Source: a virus
Virus record (IMG/VR): IMGVR_UViG_3300028833_000003
DNA length: 64,000 nt
Strand: one strand, 5' to 3'
This document shows positions 21,039 through 34,114 of this stretch, piece by piece. Every line of letters starts with the position of its first letter. Positions within the stretch are counted from its first letter, which is position 1. Made by a program: the position numbers and the translations under genes. The notes beneath the pieces were generated by a model that was not told the DNA's origin, did not search any database, and saw only the letters and a program-made list of their open reading frames with translations.

Positions 21039-21089
21039 AAAAAAATAAAGGGACGTAGATAAAAAATCTACGTCCCTTTATTTTTTTTT
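21038..21089. terminator. Bidirectional intrinsic terminator between convergent arms
   Basis: A 13-bp perfect stem AAAGGGACGTAGA / TCTACGTCCCTTT is flanked by an A-run on the left and a T-run on the right. Confidence 0.75.
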
Positions 21090-21492
21090 ACCCTACAACA
21101 GGTGTTTTCTTTTCATTAACCAATGATTCAATATATGCCTTAGTGAATAGATCAAAATCACCTACGACCGCGGTTAGATACTGCTTAGCATCTTCACTTA
21201 ATACTGTAATTACGCTATTGTAAGTTAATTGAAATGCTTCTTTCTGTGCTTCCGCAGTGAAAGCATTTTTATTCTTTAAAGCATTAACATAAGTTTGGTT
21301 CGTCATTTCTACGCAACGAGCAACTGTATCTTCAAACATACTTAAATACTTGTAATATACAGTATCCTCTTGACCAGCTTTATAATTGTCGATCTTTGCG
21401 CGAACCCACTTAACAAAATAAGTAGTCAATATCCCCAAAAAAGGAATGATAACTAACTTAAAAATCTCATTTAAAATTTCAGCCCAATTCAT
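21088..21492 (-). CDS. Holin, LL-H-like family
   Basis: The start is chosen at MNWAEILNEIFKLVIIPFLGILTTYFV, 9 nt after GGAGG. One N-terminal TM helix is followed by a helical ..NQTYVNALK..FTAEAQKEAF.. tail typical of LL-H holins. TAA stop. Confidence 0.55.
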   Translation of the reverse strand: MNWAEILNEIFKLVIIPFLGILTTYFVKWVRAKIDNYKAGQEDTVYYKYLSMFEDTVARCVEMTNQTYVNALKNKNAFTAEAQKEAFQLTYNSVITVLSEDAKQYLTAVVGDFDLFTKAYIESLVNEKKTPVVG

Positions 21493-21712
21493 TGTCATAA
21501 TCCTCCGAATTATCTTCTTCGTTATTATCACTAATTGCTGCTGCATCTTGTATTTCTTTGTATGTTTCACTTATCTTTTTATAATTCTCAATACCTGCTT
21601 TTGCAGTATAACCCAAACGTAAGGAAACATATACTGTTGTTACACCAGCCAAGGCGCTTGAACCAAAAGATGCTAATCCTTGATTAATAACAACAATAGC
21701 AAGAATTGCCAA
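21479..21712 (-). CDS. Small membrane protein (second holin/antiholin candidate), start unresolved
   Basis: The track ORF starts at a TTG, but the hydrophobic helix (IIDIVVYAVSLLAILAIVVI) extends upstream to about 21750 with no ATG/GTG/TTG. It has a second TM (FGSSALAGVTTVYVSL), an acidic tail and a TGA stop. Confidence 0.4.
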   Translation of the reverse strand: MAILAIVVINQGLASFGSSALAGVTTVYVSLRLGYTAKAGIENYKKISETYKEIQDAAAISDNNEEDNSEDYDNELG

Positions 21713-21764: not shown

Positions 21765-23183
21765 TCAAGCGGTCGCTGTTGTCGCTTTCGCTAATTTTTG
21801 GAGCGCTGCTACTAATTCTTTTGCTTCTATCTCACTTGAACACGCCACCTTTACATACCAAGATTTTGGTGTATCAGGTGTGGTAGGTTCAACAGGCACA
21901 GATACAGGAATTAAAAATTCATTCATCATATATCCGGTCTGTCCGTTATACATAATGCGGTCCCATTCAGTGCCATGATCAATAATATCAACAATAGTCC
22001 CAGTTGATATTTTTGCTATTACACCAAAATTAGTGCCCGCGCCAGAACGCATACGCACTGTCGTGCCGCTTTTTGATTTTACTGTTGCCTAGTATAACAC
22101 TGATAAAACCTCCCCTTCTGATGTACCAGCATTTGCTAGTTCTTCTGGTGTATATAAACCCGCGGGGATTGCATAGTGCGTCCAGCCATATGTACCTAAT
22201 TCTTGACGTTTAACGCCAGACTTGCTACCAGCTGCATGCATAAAAGTGCCATCGCCCAGATAAACACCAGTATGTGACATTGGATTAGATGTTGGTGATT
22301 CATGATATAAAGCACAAATCTTATCTTTTGGCATCTAATCAATTGGTCCTTTTCGCACCCAGATACTTGATTTCCATTGTGAAGATGCGCCAGATACTAA
22401 GGAAATACCAATTTGCGCGAAGCATAACTTCGTAAATCCTTGGCAATCATAAACCTACTTACCGAGCCACTTCTTTACAATGTTATAATCAACTTTGTCT
22501 GGATATTGAGCAATACGCGCACGAATAAATTGTTCGGTTGCAATTTGTCCTTGAGCACCATAGATATAACCACAACCTTCTTTACTTAACGCATACTCTC
22601 TGATTACTTTCTCTTTCTCCTATGAGGTCATTACTTCAAATACCTCCTTTACTACTGCACCAGGATAATAAAATTGTAAAATATCCTAATATGTAAAGCC
22701 CATATTTGCCATCTTCTTTGCGCCAACTTGGCTCATACCAACACAATGTCCATTGCGCGCAGTAGTTGTATAGGGGTCATCTTTACTAACTAGCCAAGCG
22801 CGTTCTCCACCCCAGACTTCTTTAGAGCTTTTTATATGTCCGCCATTGCTAGAAGAGAAAGGCACTGGGCTACATAAAGTGTTTTTATATGTTAAAACTA
22901 ATGCATTAGTTGCTTCAACACAACGATAAGTAGCAGCATAAGCATTATCAATTGATCTCGAATATCGATATGCCTAATGCTTAGCGCTATTATCTGTCAT
23001 ATTTTTAATAGTATAAGCATTAGTTCGTGCGGCAATTGCTTGGGCTTTTACAGCTTCATCCGGCCCATTCATTTCACTAGGAACACAACCTAGCAAATAT
23101 GTTTCTGGATGAATATTGATCGTGTCATTAACATTAACGCCCCAAGCTTCCGCATTACTTTCTCTTGTTAAAGTTAATCTCAT
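21765..23183 (-). CDS. Multidomain lysin: SpoIID-like + NlpC/P60 + SH3 (6 in-frame TAG)
   Basis: It is one open frame with no TAA/TGA, checked codon by codon. TAGs appear as cta at 22974, 22686, 22620, 22455, 22335 and 22086.
- SpoIID motif: HCVGMSQVGAKKMANMGFTY.DILQFYYPG
- NlpC/P60 motifs: VYDCQGF and HTGVYLGDGTFMHA
- SH3: VRMRSGAGTNFGVIAKI..
- an internal AAGGAGG-ATG at 22631 precedes the P60 part. Confidence 0.8.
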
Positions 23184-24343
23184 TATAATTTCTCCAATAA
23201 AAGCGCCCATTGCGCATGTGTTATGGGGGTTTCAACTTCATCTATATTATCTGGGATTTCATAATTTTCATTACGCCCTTGCAATTGATGCATTAATATA
23301 TCGTAATGGTTCTACGTAATTGGAATGTCATAATCCCAATCCAAAGTGTTAATAGCTGGCATAATGGCTGCCATTTGCGCACTTTCTTGTGTTAATCTAT
23401 TAACATGGCCGATAAACTAACGACATAATGTATATGCAGTCATTAAGTCATCAATCTAAAACATAGTTTCATTCTCATCTTCTAATGTATCAATAAAAAC
23501 AAAAGAAGCGCTTCGATAGAATTCATTTGATGTATCTAATGAACAACCTGCTGAACCAACTATTTTAGAGTCTAAAACTGCACATACTTTAACATATAAT
23601 GAAGGTGTTGTGTTAATTTCATTATAGTTTTTTGTACCAAGAAACGATGTTAAAGGAACAATCATAGATGTCTAATTTGTACGTTCCGTATCAATCCAAC
23701 CTAAAGAAACTAATTCTCCACTGTTTGGAGTTAATAATGTTTTATCATTAGGCCCAGCAAATACACCCACAGAATAATGATCAATTGTACCAGTAAAATT
23801 TTCTGGTGGAGACCAGCGCACCGCTACACGATTATAATACTAAGGCCATACTTCTATTTCTACTGGCGCTGGAATAGAAGTATCAATAGTTAAACTACGA
23901 TAGTAAATACGTACATCTACATAACTAATAATAATCGTTCCATTAATTGCGTAAGGCCAAAATGTAATCTAAAAAGTTTGGCTTGTCTTATTAGTCAAAC
24001 CTGTTATTTCATATTCATAACTGCCAAACGTTGAACCATTAATATTGCGAACTGGAAACTCTGAACTTTCTAAATAGTTAGTCCCGAAACCAACTCGTCC
24101 TTTACAATTCATTTCATAGTTAAAATCAATAACAGCTTTTGTAATTTCAACTCCGCCAGGAGGAGGATTACGTAATGTACAATTAATAGAAATAGTAGTG
24201 CCGCAGAATTGTAATTCTTCAACTGCTGCGGCCTGTGGAACATGTATATAAGTCGCCGGAGTTTCGGCGCACTATGAACTACTTTTAATTGGTTGCCCAG
24301 ATGCTATGGGATAATATGTATATTTACAATTTACATTCGCCAT
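23183..24343 (-). CDS. Cys-rich / FN3-like structural or accessory protein (7 in-frame TAG)
   Basis: ATG at 24343, bounded upstream by an in-frame TGA. TAGs are at 24272, 23969, 23840, 23672, 23456, 23417 and 23312.
- FN3-like VAVRWSPPENFTGTIDHYSV
- C-terminal part ..VNRLTQESAQM..WDYDIPITQNHYD.., reminiscent of fibre-tip NRIE-type segments
- TAA stop overlaps the lysin ATG. Confidence 0.55.
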
Positions 24344-24366: not shown

Positions 24367-24705
24367 TTATTCACCATCATCTGCGTCTAAATCTTCACTA
24401 GAAGAAAAATTAACATACATTTCAAAATTGTCTCCACCATTGTATGTTTCTTGAATAGATGTAATTCTACCTTGAACATCATTTAAATCATAAATATTAT
24501 TACCACTATCACCTTTAATAGTAATACGAGAAACAGTCTGTGGCATTAAAGTATTCAAGAAAGTGGCGGTACTTGCACCAGGAACCAAACTAATATAAGC
24601 ATTGCTTACTAAATCATTCTGTTCCTTGTCATATGTAGTAGTACGACTATAATTTACGAGTTGAATAGCATGAGCTGCGTCACTATTAAAAATAATTGTT
24701 GCCAT
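24367..24705 (-). CDS. Hypothetical protein (112 aa, acidic C-terminus, no TAG)
   Basis: MATIIFNSD.. follows AAGGAGGTCATTTTA. TAA stop. Confidence 0.5.
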   Translation of the reverse strand: MATIIFNSDAAHAIQLVNYSRTTTYDKEQNDLVSNAYISLVPGASTATFLNTLMPQTVSRITIKGDSGNNIYDLNDVQGRITSIQETYNGGDNFEMYVNFSSSEDLDADDGE

Positions 24706-24718
24706 TAAAATGACCTCC

Positions 24719-25702
24719 TTATAAATTACCAAATAATAGTATATAACTATCATCTATTGTATTTATATCAGTAGCGCTCGCCCAGCACCATACTGACATA
24801 ATCGCATTAAATAACATATCTTTATTTGTCTATGTTATCTAATTATCTTTAAGTAATTGGCCTACTCTTTTATCAAAATTTGACCGTAAAATTTTTTCAT
24901 CATAACCATCTTTATTTTTTCGCATCTAACAATCCCATAATTTTCCATCACAATCAATAGTGAATGAATCAATGCCTGCCATACAATGCGGAGTTTGTTT
25001 AGGTACTTCTATGGTTCCAAACCATTTATAATAATTCTCTGCATCATAACCGAAATAACGACCAGGCACTTCAATGGTCGGCTTTGCACCGATATCATCA
25101 ATATTAATATATGGTCTTTTTTCTACTAAAGGTATCATTTTATCATGTAATTCCTACGCCCATGCATACCAAACTGTAGAGTCGGTGCGCAAATTAATTT
25201 TAGTTAATGTCGATTTAGTAGATATTTTTAACTAAAAATTATTGGTCGGCATTTTCGTTGGGCAAGAATAAATTAAATGCTCTAGCGCGCGGATTGAATT
25301 TTTATACGCACCTTTCTAACGATTAAAATCATTCATATCTTCTGGACCATCAATATTAAATTGGATATGTAATGTTACATCATATGATAATAATGGCATG
25401 ACGAAATAACGGTATAATTCTGATGTACCGTTTGTAGAAAACATAATATTTTTGATTTGCGGCCATCGCTTTAAAATTGCAGTAATCATTGCTGAAAAAT
25501 ATGGTCCATTAAGTGATGGCTCCATTCCCCATAATCCAATACTGGTAGTTTCTGGGGTGATAGTTTCAAGAATGGTTTTTGTAAATGAACCATTCTTGAA
25601 ACACTCCTAAATGCGTTTATTATCATGCTCTTGATATTGCATACAACAATAAGCACATTTTAAATTACATGCATCGGAAAAATAAATGTTAAGATTTTTC
25701 AT
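24719..25702 (-). CDS. Radical SAM enzyme with C-terminal SPASM/twitch-like Cys motif (7 in-frame TAG)
   Basis: 327 codons in one frame, checked codon by codon, with TAGs at 25607, 25316, 25232, 25154, 24926, 24839 and 24830.
- CNLKCAYC (CX3CX2C)
- GMEPSLN (GGE-like SAM motif)
- STNGT
- IDGPEDMNDFNR.KGAY, which is anSME/SPASM-family-like
- HCMAGIDSFTIDCDGKLWDC, a SPASM-type C-terminal motif. Confidence 0.8.
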
Positions 25703-25793
25703 CTTTTATTTGCACTCCACATAAAGCATTACATAAAACATTACAAAACGAAGTTTCTGTAATATTTTGATTATTATCTTCTTGCCAACGCAT
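25689..25793 (-). CDS. 34-aa Cys-rich peptide, candidate RiPP precursor
   Basis: MRWQEDNNQNITETSFCNVLCNALCGVQIKDEKS. The SD AAGGTGA lies 7 nt upstream. The ORF fills the only gap between fibre gene 1 and the rSAM gene and overlaps the rSAM start by 14 nt. It has no TAG. Confidence 0.45.
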   Translation of the reverse strand: MRWQEDNNQNITETSFCNVLCNALCGVQIKDEKS

Positions 25794-25795
25794 TT

Positions 25796-28700
25796 TTATT
25801 TCACCTTAATCCATATTCTATTATTTACAGGAACTGCCTTTTCACCCCAAATTGTGTATTCAGGTACTTCACTAACATAGCCTATAATACAATCAGGATA
25901 CTAAACAATCTCTTCTCTTGTCATAATATCTATCGTACCATTAGGAGCAGCACATACTGCCATACCAGCGTGATAATTTGTTCTATCTTGATATGTATAT
26001 ACTAGAACACGACCAGCAACAGCCACTGGTGTTTTAGCCGTTTCAGTTTCACCTTGCGCAAAACCATAGGTATCAGATACAATAGAAGCGCCTGGTATTA
26101 GACGTTCTTCTGTACGAGTCATAATACCATTGTCATTTTCTTGTACGCAACGTCCAGCTTCTAATTCTGTCGTGCAACGATATTCCGCATAGTCATTCCA
26201 AGCAGCGCCCATTAAAACGCCAGCAGATAAATCAGAATAAATTGCACTACTGCCCAAATATAAACATGCTTTACTACTAGCATTAGCACGCCAAATTATA
26301 GCATCTGTAGTTGGATTTGCAGAAGGACCTGTAAAAACTAATTGTTTTCCTCTTCCAACTGTTATATTTTCAGTTGATGTAATACCAGCTGCCGTTAAAG
26401 CACCTGCAGATGATATATATGCACCTGCTGAAGCACATGGTACAATATTAGTTTGCTCTGCACTACCGCTTGGTGTGGTAGGCGTACCCAATAAATACGC
26501 TGTCCAAGTTGGTGATGTGGCAACTTTAACATTAACAAATTTATCAGTAGTAGTTATCTATGCCCATGTTGGCTCACCACTACCATTTGATTTTAAATAA
26601 TAGTTCTTAGTACCAGCACTAGTAGGAGCGTAGAAACTAGCTGATGTAGTTGCTGTACCATTTAATGTGACAGTACTTCCATCGCCCCATTCAGGCACAC
26701 TAGCACCCATTTTTAAGAATTTACCAGCCGCACCTTTACCTAAACGTGTTGGTGTATTAGCAGCAGACCAATAAATTATATCACCTGCGTGAGTACCAAT
26801 AGATTTAGGAATTGCATAGTCAGAAAAATTTAACTAATCTAATACATTAACCCAACCGCCATTAGTAGTGCTATTTTGAAGAGCACCACCTGCTACGCGT
26901 TTATAATAAATACCATTTGCATTAAATGGAATTGCGAGGTCAGTATAATAACCAGAATTATTTGCATGATTACATCTAATAATATGAGTCCAAGTAGCAC
27001 TAGAAAATGGAGTATCATTTACTTTAACTGCTCCCTATCTAGCAGCACTAATATTGAAATATTGTAAGCCATTCCAACCATAGTCCATACGTGTATTGCT
27101 ACTTAATTGCGTTGATGTAGTTGCAGTTGTAGCATTACCAGACAAAGTACCAGTAATTGTGTATCCACCAGTAATTGTTTTAGCATATGGATCAATAACT
27201 AATGCAGTACCGACACCAGTTTTTGTCGTTCCATCAGCAGATGCAATACCAAAAATACGGAAATTACTATTTAAATTATCTAAAACAATACCCGCTTTTG
27301 TTGTTGCATTTGCGGCAGCACATAAATGAAGTTCTCCACCTTCGCCAGAGCCATCTGGTTTAATATCTATAGTACCATTGAAATAGCTTGGTCCAGCAAC
27401 AGTTAAGTTATATGATGAATTAAAGTTACTATTAACAGCCAATCGAGAAGTAGCTTTAATACCATTGGTTCTAAAAGCGGCGCCTCTACTTTCAGATGTT
27501 ATAAGTCCAATAGTAAAATCAAATAATGAATCTGCTGAAGTATTATATCTGTCACCAATAAAATATGCTTTTTGGCTACCATCATTAAAAATTAATTTTG
27601 GGCCACCTAATGATTCATTATAAGCCGCTGTTGCACCTGTATCTGATCCAGAGACAGTTCCAGTTATCATAACATTGCCATTAAATGTAGTACCAAGTGT
27701 ATTATAGTCTATTGATATTGCATTTTTTGAATATGTAGTTTGCGCAGATGTAGTATAATTAGTATTAAACTATAATAAACCAGATGTATTCAAAATCTAC
27801 CAAGACGCACTAGAATTACGATAAAACTCAAGACCTACGGCAGCTGTTCCAGCACCTTTTAAAACTAATTTACCAGTTTGCGTAGTAGTAGATGAATTAT
27901 CTGCACCATCAATTAATAAACCAGTGGTTGTTGCAGTAATGCGCGCGCTATAATCAGCAGTGCTAGTATTTGTTGCGTGGAAATCAATATATTTACCAAT
28001 TTCCATTACACCATCAGAGCCAATTAATGGCGTACCTCTAAAATAAGCACCAGCTGCTGGGGCTAAATTAGATCTATAATTACTTAAACCAAGAATGGTC
28101 GCTCCGTTGGTTTCATCTAAAATGCGGCGCCAAGATTGCCAAGTGCCATTATTTTTACCGCGCACACTTAACTGTCCAGTTCGATAATCCTAAAAAATTT
28201 CTGTTATCCAAGAATTATTATACCACTGTGAAATTAATGCACCATCTGTCTATTGATAATTCCAAGCAGCTTTAGTCAAGCCAGATACATAGCCTAGTGC
28301 ATTAGTGCCAGGGCCATTACCATCAATACCAAGATTTGTGCTTGTGGTAACTTTAAAATTAGTTAAATTAGATGCGGTGGTAGAAGTATCAGAACTATTA
28401 GCATGATTAACTGTGCCACCATCTACTGCAACAGTTACATCATCATATGCAATCGCTCCAATACTTGTAGTAACATCAGGATAAACTTCAATAGATGTTT
28501 TTTTATCATCCGCTGTTGTATTATTTACTTCCGTACTTGCAAGCAATGTCCATGCATAATTAGCACCTTCTAATAAGTATGCATATGCACGCATATAAGT
28601 ACCACATTTTACATACACATCACATTGCGCAGATTGACCAGAAGCACCTTTACGAGCAATTCTAACATCACCAACTGCAAAACCATAACGCACTATCCAA

Positions 28701-31700
28701 GTAGCGCTTACTGAAGTTGCTGCTGGCGGGTCTGCACTAGCATTATTAGCACGAGCAGAAATTTTAATAACGCCGTATTTACCACCAGAGTATCGAGAAT
28801 GTATAAATAAAATTGCATCTCTATCAACATATGAACCAGTTCCTAAATTAGTAGTAGCTACACGATGCCAAGGATAATGATTAGTATTACCAGAATTAAC
28901 AGTAACATAATTATGATACCAAGTTAATGCTGTTGGAGTACCATTATTAAGATAAATACCTCTACACTCACTGCCAACTGTTGTTGTACCTAATTTAGAT
29001 GCTGCACCAGTCAAATTACCAACAAAACCATTAGTTGCAGTTACGCTGCCTGGGAAAGTGCTATTACCACTAGTATCAAATAATTTAATTTCTTTAGCAA
29101 CTATATTAGAAGTATTGTAACGTCTAACTACAATCTATTCGTTATTACCATCATCGCCAACAGCAATTTCTAATAAACCAGCATTCGCGGTTTCTTCTAA
29201 ATGACGAATCCAACCAGCATCATTATTTCCATTACCATTTAATGGGTCAGCAAATGCAATAGCGTTACTATAAATAAATACACCACGCTTATTACTATTA
29301 TAAGGTAGTTTATCTGGCATACCAGATGTAAGAGCCATACGAATATGGTTTCCTCCCGCTGCGGAACCACCTTGTACCCACAACCCACCTGTCTAAATCG
29401 TTGTTGCACCATTGATAAATAAAACACTACCATCTGTTTGTTCTGCGTGCTAACCAATTGTTAATTTAGGTACTGATATACGCACACCAGTTGCAAGCGT
29501 AGTTCCAGTTGGAGCATGCAAACGTATATTACCTTCTGAATTATAAGACTTAGCATTGTCAGTAACACCAATGTAACAATAGCTTAAACTATTTGCAGAA
29601 CCAAAATTACCAAAATTACTTAAAATAGATGTTTTATCATTTTTATAAGCATCAAATACTGTCCAAGCCCAACCGCCACCGCCATCTTTAACACGAGAAC
29701 TAAAAAATTGACTAGTATTTTCTGAGCCATAAAACTAAGATGTACCTAAAGTTTTATAAGTTTCGCTTAAATCCCCAACATATGATGCGGCAATAGCAGA
29801 ACCGTGCCAAGTACCAGCAGTAATAGTACCAACTTTTGTAATTTCAGTTAAATTTTTTTCTGTTATAATTCTATAATTCTTATTAGCAGTCAAACCAGTA
29901 GCAACTGTTGGTAAATAATATGTTTCATAATAACCGGTAGTAGTAGTCGTAGCAGGATTATTAGGACTATATTGACGCCAATTCCATATGCCTGTTGTTA
30001 CATTAGTTGCATCACCTACATCATACCAGGTTTCAGCTACTCTATTAAGAGCATTATTTCGTAATACTATATCTTTGATATAACGAGAAGTCGAACCCCA
30101 ATAACCATATCCACGTACATCTAGTACATAGTTACCAACTAACGGTGCCATAGTAGTAATAGCATTATCTTGATTAATTGTAAATAAAGCATTTGATTTA
30201 GTTGAGCCATGATTATGCAACCAAATGCCTCGATTACCAGTATCTGTCCCAGCACTATATAAATAAATGTCACCAGCATTGCTTTGTGCTTTTACATTAA
30301 TTTCTTTGCCTGATGTTGTTCTACCAGCAACAATATGAGAATTAGTATGTATTTGTTTTGTTACGCCTAAACCGCCACCAATACGAACTGCCCCGTTATT
30401 ATAGTCAGTAGCATCTTGAGTATATTGTATATTGACTATATTACCCGCTGTGGCATCACCATAGCCCATAATAATCGGGCCACCGTTTATATTTAAATAT
30501 AGTCCTTGTTCTGATTCATTAACTTCAGTTCCACGATTACCATCTGAATCACAACCAGAAATTCCACGGACAATTAAAGCATTTGAACCAGCAGAACCAA
30601 TAATATGCACACTGCCAGTTAAATACGATGCCGCGCCAGTGGCAATACCACCACCAACTACTAATGCGCCAGTTGTAGAAGAAGTTGATGCCGTAGTGGC
30701 TTTAATTTTTACTGTACCCGCTTTATTAATTGTTAATAATCCATTATTACCATAAAGCCCTAATCCAACTGCATTTTCTGCATTGTTAGAACCATAATAA
30801 TGGAACTCAAGTACTGCCTAATTATTAGAACCATTACTCACACCTGTCATTAAGCATGTGTTACCACCGCTAGCTAAATTAGGAACTAAATGATTAATAC
30901 CCCAAGAATAAGTACCACTTTTCACCACAGTTGCTGGCGCGTTTGAGGTTAAATTAATCATACCTTTTGCGGCACTATCTGTGGCATTTGGATTATATTC
31001 TACTGTAGTTTGACCAGTGAATAACGCTCCGCCATTTTCATAAAAACGAATTTGTGCATCTGTTCTTGCAGTTGTACCATTATAAGTTGTATCTTTAACA
31101 TAACTAAATAATAAATCATCTGTATATGAAGAATCTGTATAGGAACCAATTTCCCAAGATCCATTACTAGTTTTTGTTGATACTACTGGTGAATAACCAG
31201 GAATTGAAGTTATTGCAATCAAAGCATTATCTCTGCCTTTATGCCAAGAAGATGCAATACCAGCTCTTGTAATAATATGACTTGTAATAAATTTAGAACC
31301 ATCCCAAGTTAAAGAACCACCTGATAACTTATTCGTTTGATTATAGGTAGTAAATAGTAATCGAGTATTACCATTTAAACCCTAAATTGCTAATGTCCCC
31401 GCGCTATTGACGTCACCCATTTGGGCATCATCACCGACTTTATTCCATGTGTTATTAGCGAAATTCAATGCGCCGGTCATAGTCCCGCCAGCCAATGGTA
31501 AATATTTATTAACTCCTAATGCGGTAATCATATTGGCCTTACTAACCCAGTAAGTTTTGCCACCATTTGCAAATGAATCAATCGCAAGAAAAAATTCTGC
31601 GGCGCTACCTTTTTCTGGTAATGCTACATTATCTTTCCAGCTTAATGGCGCGGTCATCTAACCGCCTTCTATAATTTGCGGTTTAAGAGTAGTAGTATAG

Positions 31701-31768: not shown

Positions 31769-34114
31769 TTAACGCTCTATAAATTGTGTAGCATTAACAC
31801 TAAACATTTTTTTACTTATTTGCGCAGGTTTATTTAAATCTTCTTCTGTTTCAGTAAAATGAGAAGCTTCAAATATACCTGTTCTTTTTATTTGTGGTTT
31901 AAACTCATTGTCAGCAATATACCACTATAAATGCCGTACTTTCCATGTAACTGGATTAGACTATCCGTTGGTTACTAGCCCTAAACTTGAATAGTCTCTG
32001 ATTGGTAAATGATTAGTATTGCCATTGTTAGTGTTTGAAGCACCACGATAAATTCTAGTCCATTTATTTGCAGGAATTGCTATAATTGAAGCCAAGCGTG
32101 TGCCTGTTGCATCATTATCATTTCCTGCCCAATTTACATCAGTACCACCAGCAGTATTATTATAGTCTGTATTTATATTTAATGCAATCGGTGTCCATAC
32201 CTCAGCAGTCCAGCGGTAGGTCGCGCCATATGGTACCATTAATGCTGGCGTATCTGCTAAACGAACTCCATAGCCCCATGAAGAAGTACCAACAGGAGAT
32301 ACAATCGTATATGTGTCTGTTTTTTCATCATAAGATACAGAAGTCGCACTGTTATTTACAAGTTTCGCATTGATCATCATATCATTATTTTCCTATACTT
32401 CATATGGATGCATATTACCAAATTTATCTATCTTTATACCAACATTATACAACTATTTTATTTCCGTGTCAAGTAACGCAGTACAATAGATACGAAAATC
32501 ACTATAACTACCTAATGTTTTTCTCCATACACCACCAGCCTTTGAAAAACCAATATATAATTGACTAAACGAAGCTAACGTTTTTCCTGCTCCAATAGTT
32601 ACATTACTTTTTTCGATACCATCCTAATATGTGCGCGCAGTTGTTCCATCATAAGTAACAGCATAATGATGCCATTCATTTTTTATATATGAAAAATTTA
32701 AACGCTTTACACCAGAGCCATCACTTGGGTAAATATCAAAACCACTATCACGATGATGGAATGCAGTTAAATTATAATCGGTTGGCGCGGTTTCATTATT
32801 TGATGTACAAAAAACCGCATGACTTGTACTATTACCATAACCACTTTCTGGTTTTCCCCACCACGTGACAGTCATTTGAGAAGGAGTTGTTAAAGTTAAT
32901 GGTGTTTGGATATAACATAATCCAGTATTATTATTGGTCGTTGGCTCTGAACTATTCCATTTTGTTGCAACAGTATATCTTTTAGTATCTGTTGTAGATA
33001 TTAAATTACCAATAATAGTACCATTATGATTATATCCACTACTATCTTCAATAATATTATTATTATATGTCTAACACCATGGAGTAGCTTTATTACCCCA
33101 TTCTAATTTCATACATTTCCACTATTCAGTAGTAGTAGTAGTTATTGAAGTATTATGATTCGTAATTAATAGTTGTAATGTTGTATAATCTGTATTTAAA
33201 GCAAAAGTTACAGATGAACGTCCTGATGAAGAGGCAGCAATGACTTCCGTAGATAATACTGTTGGCCTATCACTACTACTTTTATATTGCTAAACACGAG
33301 CTTTTAATGGTTTCTGACCTGATATAGCATTGATGTCTATACTAAAAGTAAACTAATCACCATTTTTTGCCCCTGTGGCTTCAACAAAACTAGTAATTGG
33401 CATTTCCCAAATAGTTGTATAATATTGACCAATAGAGAAATTAGTCCAAGTATTAACATTATTATTGGTTAAATTTATAGAATTATCTAACTTATAATGT
33501 AATATTAATCCTCGCGCAATTTCTGACACTTCTGCAGATGATAAACAATGATCATACAGTCTGACATCATTCATCCACCCATTTAATGGATTGCCAGTAC
33601 CTGTCTATGTAGTACCAATATAAGTAGCAGTTGCAGTTGCTTTTGTTGGCGCAGTCCCTGCGGTTCCCGCAGTTCGCAAACCATTTATATATACTGCTTT
33701 TGTATTTTTACTTTTACTATAAGTAAAACAAATATGATACCACTAATTTGCTACAAATGATAATCCAGCGCTAAGATTAATAGTCCAACGTTCGCCAGTA
33801 TCAAAATATAATTGACTAGCATTCATTATCCATGCCGCAAATCCAGTTGAAGCAGTTTCACTACGATTACAAAATAAAGTTGCGGCAGAAAAAGAAGCCA
33901 TTTTAATCCAACAGCAAAAACTCATTTCATCAGTATTATTATCCCATAAAGCCGGTGTCAATGTGATATTACTATTGTTACTAGAAGTAAATCTATAACA
34001 CTAACCAATTTTTCCATTTGTATCAACAGTAAGACTATTACTATTAACAGTAGTATCACTAATACCTTGATTATGTAAATCCCCAGTAAGGGGGAGCCAT
34101 ACTCGCAAACTCAT
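31769..34114 (-). CDS. LamG/concanavalin-like lectin-domain fibre protein (781 aa, 12 in-frame TAG)
   Basis: ATG at 34114 after AAGGAGGG. The N-terminus MSLRVWLPLTGDLHNQG...FCCWIK...WYHICFTY...VYINGL...GWMNDVRLYDHCLSSAEVSEI matches the LamG_3 pattern, and a second similar module lies downstream. One frame was verified. Confidence 0.7.

Follow-up and report, generated by a model that had tools for sequence, protein, structure and literature searches.

A conserved cysteine micro-gene beside a three-cysteine radical-SAM enzyme in TAG-recoded phages: a possible peptide-modification cassette

In the thioether systems for peptides made by the ribosome and modified after translation (RiPPs), such as PapB/PapA, NxxcB/NxxcA, CteB, SkfB and thuricin CD, a small cysteine peptide gene adjoins the gene for a radical S-adenosylmethionine (rSAM) enzyme of the SPASM/twitch group. 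In SPASM and twitch enzymes with peptide substrates, the auxiliary cluster serves for binding or oxidation of the substrate. A beta-thioether from Cys to Asn is formed by NxxcB, for which, as for the sactisynthases, the working model has the substrate Cys bind to an auxiliary cluster (PMC9389541); twitch-type peptide maturases are known in SkfB and TqqB (PMC10114670). A similar gene arrangement is present in a 64,000-nucleotide stretch of viral DNA, IMG/VR record IMGVR_UViG_3300028833_000003 (the whole stretch is called the window here), where an open reading frame (ORF) of 34 codons (25689..25793, minus strand; peptide MRWQEDNNQNITETSFCNVLCNALCGVQIKDEKS) overlaps the start of an rSAM gene of 327 amino acids with seven in-frame TAG codons (24719..25702, minus strand). 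The genetic linkage of a peptide gene to a modifying enzyme that characterizes RiPP clusters is found in this pair, and the cassette may be a phage-borne peptide-modification module of the RiPP type, a reading that we hold at slightly short of an even chance. The gene pair, its conservation, the purifying selection on the peptide family and the cluster motifs of the enzyme are established here, and from them we infer that the peptide is the substrate, as well as the chemistry and the fate of the product. Searches of open-access papers yielded no description of an rSAM-peptide pair in a phage tail module, and we know of no precedent for a virus-encoded rSAM peptide natural product in a structural module.

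The DNA of 16 loci of the rSAM subfamily to which this enzyme belongs, with proteins of about 330 amino acids, was compared (loci are given by L numbers and single proteins by P numbers), and 14 of the loci keep the CX3CX2C motif. An ORF of 21-34 codons, preceded by a Shine-Dalgarno (SD) sequence and lying in the same operon, was found in 11 of these 14 (enzyme identity, 33-95%). The usual form of the micro-peptide, typically only 21-24 amino acids long, is M-C-x-x-[LM]-C followed by a hydrophobic stretch, an acidic run and W-[FY], as exemplified by MCNALCISLWINFEEDEDWFND of L010; the other copies are MCLGLCIQLWINFDEDAEWFNA (L003), MCNALCISLWIPFEEDEAWFDEEE (L004), MCNTLCLSLWLELEDDEEWFNEVE (L011), MCNLMCLTLYLYIEEDDEWFDN (L012), MEQNTCNLMCLALWYEEEDDDWFDQEP (L016), MCPLLCALLFYQLEDDDWFDD (L007), MCPLLCPFLMKFDDDLEWYED (L017) and MSCTLMCLLLVNINEEQAYEWYED (L008), together with a longer variant shared by the window and L001. 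In the relatives, the SD (GAGGTGA, AAGGAGG and similar) is 5-10 nt ahead of each micro-ORF, and in nine loci the micro-ORF overlaps the rSAM start codon. A strict motif search gave one match per locus, at the expected site, and one stray match in the six-frame translation of the window (64 kb). Between pairs of micro-ORFs, synonymous sites are saturated (pS 0.4-1.0) while pN is 0.10-0.38, with ratios of non-synonymous to synonymous substitution (dN/dS) of 0.07-0.7, which indicates that the family is protein-coding and under purifying selection. Moreover, the types of peptide tail follow the clades of the enzyme (EWYED goes with the L008/L017 clade), and in L008 and L017 the micro-ORF and the rSAM gene occur together without the F domain, the C-terminal domain of the giant protein encoded before the cassette in the window, directly upstream. 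On this evidence, the micro-ORF is a genuine micro-gene, conserved and so far unannotated, with a link to this rSAM family. Standard gene callers do not see it, owing to its length of fewer than 30 codons and to the TAG codons that break up the genes around it, and this may be the reason for the missing annotation. That the micro-ORF is fused to the giant gene by read-through was considered and rejected, as only L003 has the two in one frame. A strict DNA pattern for the micro-ORF, run across IMG/VR, found no micro-ORF.

In the window, the 93-nt gap behind the giant fibre-like gene is filled by the 34-codon micro-ORF. Its ATG is at 25793, two bases apart from the TAA of the giant gene (25796-25798); its SD, AAGGTGA (25801..25807), is built from the last codons of that gene (AAG GTG AAA TAA); and its stop codon (25689-25691) lies within the rSAM gene, whose ATG is at 25702, giving an overlap of 14 nt. 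Taken alone, this ORF is barely beyond chance and is weak evidence: among random gaps of 93 nt with the same composition and TAG as a sense codon, 7% hold a gap-filling ATG ORF and 0.3% hold one that also has CxxxC. Three tandem 12-nt units, TTTTGTAATGTT, TTATGTAATGCT and TTATGTGGAGTG (25713..25748), code for CNVL, CNAL and CGV, so that the periodicity of the peptide is due to a DNA repeat, and the third unit holds the SD (GGAG) of the rSAM gene. As a recurrent regulatory motif the 12-nt repeat was rejected, with six matches in the rest of the window against 6.0 expected. Inside the N-terminal extension of the micro-ORF there is also a hairpin of 14-16 bp with a 6-nt loop (25733..25771; arms AAAAUAUUACAGAA and UUUUGUAAUGUUUU; z = -2.3), which is kept in L001 with a pair-strengthening U.G to U-A change and is absent from the other loci; an Rfam scan of the gap gave no match.

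Compared with the typical form, the window copy has a 15-residue insertion after the Met (L016 has a 4-residue insertion) and one additional CXXX unit. In comparison with L001, a 93%-identical relative, the micro-ORF shows seven non-synonymous and three synonymous changes (dN/dS 0.47), whereas the values are 0.07 for the rSAM gene, 0.01 for the F domain and 0.10 for D, the gene 3' of the rSAM gene. The Cys core FCN[VI]LCNALCGVQI, the SD and the position of the ATG are the same in the window and L001, and the CNALC motif, SD and ATG position are common to the window, L010 and L004. In addition, P0012 (a fragment with 68% identity to the enzyme) reads through at its N-terminus, which, from the protein only, implies that the micro-ORF frame is free of stops there; in this third member of the clade, the frame probably still encodes C-x-x-x-C-N-x-L-C. 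The window micro-ORF is a derived, atypical and weakly constrained variant, a divergent and N-terminally extended member of the CxxxC family. The first-pass annotation of this DNA had described an SD-preceded 34-aa ORF that exactly fills the gap and overlaps the rSAM start by 14 nt, and its coordinates and sequence were confirmed; the small ORF also proved to be part of a micro-gene family tied to this rSAM family. Its regular CxxxCxxxC spacing needs revision, since only one CxxxC is kept family-wide and the full register, made of the 12-nt repeats, is restricted to the window. The constraint that it proposed to look for in relatives is evident for the family and relaxed in the window copy.

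The rSAM enzyme consists of an rSAM core and a twitch-like C-terminal domain. The features of the rSAM superfamily are all present, namely CX3CX2C (C12, C16 and C19; 25646..25669, the predicted [4Fe-4S] site), a GGE-like SAM-binding motif (WGMEP) and the core fold, as well as an IDGP...R..G block that aligns to the sulfatase-maturating enzyme anSME. Three further cysteines in an auxiliary region (24785..24985), C240 (24983-24985), C258 (24929-24931) and C306 (24785-24787), are invariant across 14 homologues, and C12, C16 and C19 are found in all but two, P0013 (L009) and P0017 (L014); C251, in 'DCDG', varies. The segment C240-X12-G-X4-C258 flanks a beta-hairpin that corresponds to the first hairpin of SPASM/twitch domains and can be aligned with the anSME hairpin; residues 247-256 of it are modelled at low pLDDT (the per-residue confidence of the predicted structure). 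No match to the Pfam SPASM domain (PF13186/TIGR04085) was obtained and CX2CX5CX3C is absent from the enzyme. CX3CX2C starts at residue 12 (median in the wider family, residue 16), so near the N-terminus that there is no room for a RiPP recognition element (RRE), and the helical C-terminal region (residues 260-327) is family-specific. On sequence, the enzyme is classified as an rSAM protein with a twitch-like putative auxiliary site held by three Cys, and with neither SPASM domain nor RRE. The idea of a split SPASM, in which the peptide would supply the missing Cys in trans, is unsupported, none of 153 homologues being fused.

Profile searches placed the enzyme among peptide and protein modifiers at low scores. 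In Pfam, Fer4_12 was above the cut-off (E-value = 1.3e-5) and Radical_SAM just under it (3.8e-5), and in PHROG the match was phrog_1802 ('radical SAM'; 7.7e-12). The top NCBIfam match, PapB (NF047865; 3e-13), scored 49.7 bits against a cut-off of 340 and covered residues 3-143 only; it was followed by GggB, AF0577, CcpM, HxsC, anSME and others, while N_Twi_rSAM was weak (2e-6, far under its 170-bit cut-off) and TIGR03942, the anaerobic sulfatase maturase family, reached 30.5 bits of the 349 required. The AlphaFold2 model (pLDDT 75) was closest to EpeE, DesII, anSMEcpe, CteB, viperin and MoaA with modest TM-scores of 0.38-0.47, and the top PDB sequence match was anSME (3e-6), spanning the DGP...R block and the hairpin. 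The best models and folds are thus those of peptide or protein modifiers (PapB, GggB, CcpM, HxsC and anSME; EpeE, anSMEcpe and CteB), which supports, as far as sequence relatedness goes, a place for the enzyme in the SPASM/twitch group, which these modifiers dominate. A viperin-like or defence role was rejected on account of weak, core-only matches (pVip 2.7e-7; viperin_w_prok 3.4e-6), and the three invariant C-terminal Cys are, to our knowledge, no feature of viperins. Accordingly, the CX3CX2C cluster, the GGE-like motif and the anSME-like block named in the first-pass annotation are all present, and its SPASM/twitch-type C-terminus holds in so far as the three-Cys tail is twitch-like, with SPASM excluded by the lack of a Pfam match and the variable C251; its maturase architecture agrees with the kinds of models matched, although no RiPP-maturase cut-off was reached.

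The subfamily is narrow and is specific to TAG-recoded phages. A protein search of a 90%-identity database gave four homologues of the 330-aa subfamily, and an exhaustive profile search gave about 14 clusters of about 330 aa and about 400 clusters of a larger form (430-470 aa). GenBank phages showed no match at either the DNA or the protein level. Scans of IMG/VR with the protein, with alignments and with P0019 and P0012 yielded nothing from the 330-aa subfamily; the larger family was represented by L028 only. In GTDB genomes, only distant rSAM proteins were found (21-29% identity), with no prophage or cellular home. The homologues without CX3CX2C (L009, 4372-5593; L014, 4488-5729; L015, 88-1329) keep GxEP and the three C-terminal Cys, and the gene behind them, of 71-76 aa, has a weak Rubrerythrin match; possibly they form a derivative without catalytic activity in which an Fe-S cluster is still bound. 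In L028 (3013-7759), a TAG-recoded IMG/VR contig of 165.7 kb, an F-domain fibre gene and the endolysin gene are separated by four genes: two for paralogous Tyr-rich repeat proteins (364 and 286 aa; S/T-Y-K/N/H-S/G repeats), then those for two rSAM proteins, the first (460 aa) from the wider three-Cys family and the second (462 aa) with a full SPASM domain. This arrangement is possibly a variant of the module that acts on protein substrates. Also seen was a RiPP cluster of the ordinary bacterial kind in Waltera hominis (L018, 3348-5164), in which a Cys-rich 77-aa precursor (...CSSACTCLTITCTCSS...) is followed downstream by a 478-aa rSAM-SPASM maturase with an N-terminal extension, 21% identical to the phage enzyme.

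The resemblance to the ranthipeptide and sactipeptide systems lies in PapB being the top NCBIfam match and CteB being among the top folds, and the regular CXXX spacing of the peptide recalls the CXXX-target maturases, of which the TIGR04115 family is present in related phages. However, the enzyme has one three-Cys site in place of the seven-Cys SPASM motif of the thioether RiPP enzymes; RRE, leader, protease and transporter are all absent; the Cys pair of the peptide is at the extreme N-terminus and is accompanied by a conserved acidic aromatic C-terminal tail; and the cassette belongs to the late structural/lysis operon of a lytic TAG-recoded phage. The lack of an exporter or leader protease nearby had already been pointed out in the first-pass annotation. 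The peptide is also different from the substrates of the PapB family, which have CX3D repeats and not CxxxC. N-x-x-C is found in seven of the 11 micro-ORFs, twice in the window peptide, with L, P or T instead in L003, L007, L017 and L008. The precedent that the first-pass annotation named for this motif is real as chemistry (the NxxcB beta-thioether; PMC9389541), yet the family does not keep the motif throughout. Unlike NxxcB, the phage enzyme has no SPASM domain or RRE and is encoded in a phage late operon and not in a streptococcal operon regulated by quorum sensing, and no NxxcB-specific model was among the matches listed for it. With the twitch enzymes (BtrN, MoaA, SkfB and TqqB), it appears to share a truncated SPASM-like extension opening with the C-X12-G-X4-C hairpin and, judging from sequence and model, to bind a single auxiliary cluster, in accordance with the definition of that group (PMC10114670); nevertheless, it shows no significant sequence membership in these families and conserves only three Cys.

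The likeness to anSME is that of the top PDB sequence match, and an RRE is lacking in anSME and QhpD, too, whereas the second auxiliary cluster of anSME is absent here. Reading the products of the neighbouring genes, for which no motif scan was made, we noticed neither a C/S-x-P-x-R target nor a sulfatase. QhpD makes Cys-to-Asp/Glu thioethers in a small protein subunit, and the phage peptide likewise pairs Cys with an acidic run; the match to the quino_hemo_SAM model, however, is just 9.5e-5. The systems PqqA/PqqE and MftA/MftC similarly have a peptide gene of 20-30 codons by an rSAM gene and an acidic peptide with a conserved aromatic residue. They differ in that PqqD/MftB chaperones and other pathway genes are missing from the phage locus, the match to the mycofactocin rSAM enzyme is just 1e-5, and PqqA and MftA have no counterpart to the Cys pair of the micro-peptide.

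If the peptide is the substrate, the following course can be proposed. Late in infection, the operon would be transcribed from the giant fibre-like gene through the lysis genes; the micro-ORF would be translated from the SD inside the last codons of the giant gene, and the rSAM enzyme by coupling to the micro-ORF. The enzyme would bind SAM at the CX3CX2C cluster, and a second [4Fe-4S] cluster, held by C240, C258 and C306 only, would leave one iron free for ligation by a peptide Cys of the CxxxC core. A 5'-deoxyadenosyl radical would then take a hydrogen from an acceptor residue of the peptide, and a thioether would be formed, with precedents in the chemistry of sactipeptides, ranthipeptides, NxxcB and QhpD. 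Either the Asn of N-x-x-C or a residue of the acidic run (as in the Cys-Asp/Glu links of PapB or QhpD) is a candidate for the acceptor, and an alternative chemistry would be a cyclophane at W-[FY]-[NDE]. By analogy, the combination of a three-Cys site in the enzyme with a conserved Cys pair in the peptide agrees with the logic of auxiliary-cluster chelation, and the acidic W-[FY] tail conserved in the family, which the window copy does not have, is a candidate follower sequence. With neither protease nor exporter, the product would be freed at lysis or kept on the virion or fibre. The fullest version of this proposal is a minimal RiPP pathway in the fibre/lysis operon of TAG-recoded phages of anaerobic Gram-positive hosts, in which a three-Cys twitch rSAM enzyme devoid of an RRE crosslinks a peptide of about 22 aa that has no leader but a CxxxC core and an acidic W-[FY] follower, and the product becomes part of the adsorption apparatus or a toxin or signal released by lysis; as a whole we consider this rather unlikely.

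Several observations weigh against a RiPP-type module. No maturase family cut-off was reached, the NCBIfam matches being restricted to the core (residues 3-170), and no RRE, leader, protease or exporter goes with the cassette. In the window, the micro-ORF is significantly less constrained than the rSAM gene (comparison with L001, Fisher p = 0.005), a portion of it overlaps the hairpin conserved in L001, and the peptide tail is shortened to KDEKS, with the acidic W-[FY] motif gone. The micro-ORF of L004 and L011 is not next to the rSAM gene but one or two genes upstream of it, with other genes in between. No micro-ORF was found in L002, L005 and L006 despite an intact rSAM gene under the same synteny (the contigs of L002 and L006 are short; L005 is flanked by 10 kb on either side), and in the gaps of L002 and L006 a perfect consensus sigma-70 promoter occupies the place of the missing micro-ORF. 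The absence of the small ORF from relatives that keep the rSAM gene had been named beforehand as an outcome that would speak against the proposal, and it applies to these three loci and not to the 11 others; the peptide-enzyme link is not obligate. The two lineages that lost CX3CX2C, L009 and L014/L015, are also without a micro-ORF, but with only two such lineages (11 of 14 versus 0 of 2, p about 0.08) the association of the micro-ORF with an intact CX3CX2C is suggestive and not significant. Furthermore, the larger family member of L028 is encoded behind two Tyr-rich repeat proteins, a layout that suggests protein substrates in the wider family.

These points bear on two explanations that would leave the peptide outside the reaction, and the one that we consider unlikely, but only a shade more so than the full pathway above, is that the target of the enzyme is one of the larger proteins of the fibre module (the giant protein, its F domain, D or, in larger relatives, the Tyr-rich repeat proteins), which it would crosslink or mature in the way in which anSME and QhpD act on proteins, with the micro-peptide as an accessory (small subunit, docking factor or chaperone) or unrelated. 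The synteny of the rSAM gene with F and D is at least as consistent as that with the micro-ORF, and the three intact loci without a micro-ORF, the absence of RRE and leader, the action of the closest solved sequence relative, anSME, on proteins and the gene order of L028 all agree with it, as does the fact that fibre-assembly factors are usually encoded just 3' of the fibre gene. Nevertheless, D is missing in L003, L008 and L009, F is not adjacent in L005, L008 and L014, and D has no Cys and no obvious target motif; in the same kind of search of the 90%-identity database, F gave more than 400 clusters and the 330-aa rSAM only four relatives; and the co-occurrence of a purifying-selected CxxxC peptide with a catalytically intact enzyme would be left unexplained. 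Far less probable, in our opinion, is a regulatory role, in which the micro-ORF would be an upstream ORF that sets the expression of the next gene as a leader for translational coupling or arrest, and its peptide would not be a substrate. The micro-ORF does always abut or overlap the start of the next gene, including genes other than rSAM in L004 and L011, its product is short enough to sit wholly within the ribosome exit tunnel, and its conserved C-terminal W-F-[ND]-[DN]-stop is loosely like what we take to be the W-F-N-I-D of TnaC. Packed genes with overlapping starts are, however, the norm throughout these operons, the N-terminal CxxxC is conserved as strongly as the tail, the micro-ORF was lost along with the rSAM catalytic motif in L009 and L014, and the window version keeps the Cys core without the putative arrest motif.

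A further explanation concerns the window only: its 34-codon ORF could be a decaying or non-functional remnant of an ancestral micro-gene over a structured intercistronic region, with an enzyme that works without it, and this we judge unlikely and a little less credible than the modification of a larger protein. The dN/dS of 0.47 against 0.01-0.10 for the neighbours, the loss of the conserved tail, the hairpin common to the window and L001 and the 7% of random gaps that yield a gap-filling ORF are in its favour, together with L002, the nearest non-trivial full-length relative with readable DNA, which has no ORF and a perfect sigma-70 promoter in its gap. On the other side, the SD, ATG position and Cys core are unchanged between the window and L001, a chance ORF with CxxxC is expected in only 0.3% of gaps, and the read-through of P0012 implies, from the protein only, a stop-free frame that probably encodes C-x-x-x-C-N-x-L-C.

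As for the setting of the cassette, all genes of the window from about 21 kb on are on the minus strand, and long, tightly packed ORFs with many in-frame TAGs appear there once TAG is read as a sense codon. Among 15 members of the rSAM family, TAG columns align most often with Q (14% versus a background of 4.5%), and in-frame TAGs occur in every rSAM relative, so that reading TAG as Q is reasonable. ARAGORN found no tRNA gene, and hence no suppressor tRNA, in the 64-kb window; since virtually all late genes are read through at TAG, the suppressor must come from another part of the phage genome or from some other source. The phage encodes an anaerobic ribonucleotide reductase, NrdD (PF13597, 1e-142), with its rSAM activase NrdG, the second rSAM enzyme of the phage (15648-18372, plus strand), and these point to replication in an anaerobic host, which would allow an rSAM enzyme to function. 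Judging from NrdD/NrdG, the domains of the endolysin and the strong SD sites, the host is presumably an anaerobic Gram-positive bacterium.

The gene before the cassette (25796-31657, minus strand) encodes a giant protein of 1953 aa which the first-pass annotation called a tail fibre; no hidden Markov model supports that label, and 'fibre' rests on size, composition and position. Its C-terminal F domain of about 148 aa (25796..26242; A.WNDYAE...AVC.APNGT...GRIWI.V[RK]) is 50-70% identical across loci. None of the database clusters of F is named; they are mostly fragments of 140-240 aa, probably pieces of TAG-interrupted genes. F had no Pfam, PHROG or PDB match, for which reason an identity as Peptidase_G2 or an S74 intramolecular chaperone was rejected. 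Just 3' of the rSAM gene is conserved D, a protein of 112 aa in the window (24367..24705, minus strand), without Cys and predicted to be all-beta (AlphaFold2 model of low confidence, pLDDT 48); a D of about 105 aa stands behind the rSAM gene in 10 loci. There follow, on the same strand, a gene for a 386-aa protein with a weak fn3 match, common to L001 and L002 (23183..24343), an endolysin gene with SpoIID, NlpC/P60 and SH3 domain matches (21765..23210) and a holin gene (phrog_13712; 21088..21546). The cassette had been described as lying just upstream of the lysis genes, and it is in the same operon with them, with the 112-aa and 386-aa genes intervening.

Behind the holin gene is a strong terminator with a 20-bp stem (21040-21086), where the plus- and minus-strand gene blocks converge, and the cumulative GC skew has its maximum at the same place (about 21 kb). 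A perfect sigma-70 consensus (TTGACA, 17 nt, TATAAT) was found at 32444-32472 (minus strand) within a 781-aa gene (31769-34114); the promoters in the L002 and L006 gaps resemble it. In the related phages L004 (15627-16937, 436 aa) and L005 (15936-17237, 433 aa), a second rSAM protein matches the TIGR04115 'CXXX-repeat target' maturases (6.7e-99; 331.8 bits versus a cut-off of 350), and the start of its gene is overlapped by a Cys-free 92-aa gene; the window has no counterpart of this rSAM gene.

If the peptide is the substrate, the cassette would be a compact, self-contained rSAM peptide pathway of lytic phages, co-expressed with adsorption and lysis genes, and chemistry of the RiPP type would reach a virion or lysis context. 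The enzyme would then represent a new minimal maturase architecture, RRE-less and with one auxiliary cluster on three Cys, and its substrates of 21-24 aa, short enough for chemical synthesis, would be attractive for enzymology. If the enzyme modifies proteins of the fibre module instead, phage structural proteins would undergo a radical maturation after translation of a type that is new. For the stop-codon-recoded phages of the gut or rumen, which are largely unannotated, the cassette offers a concrete candidate function.

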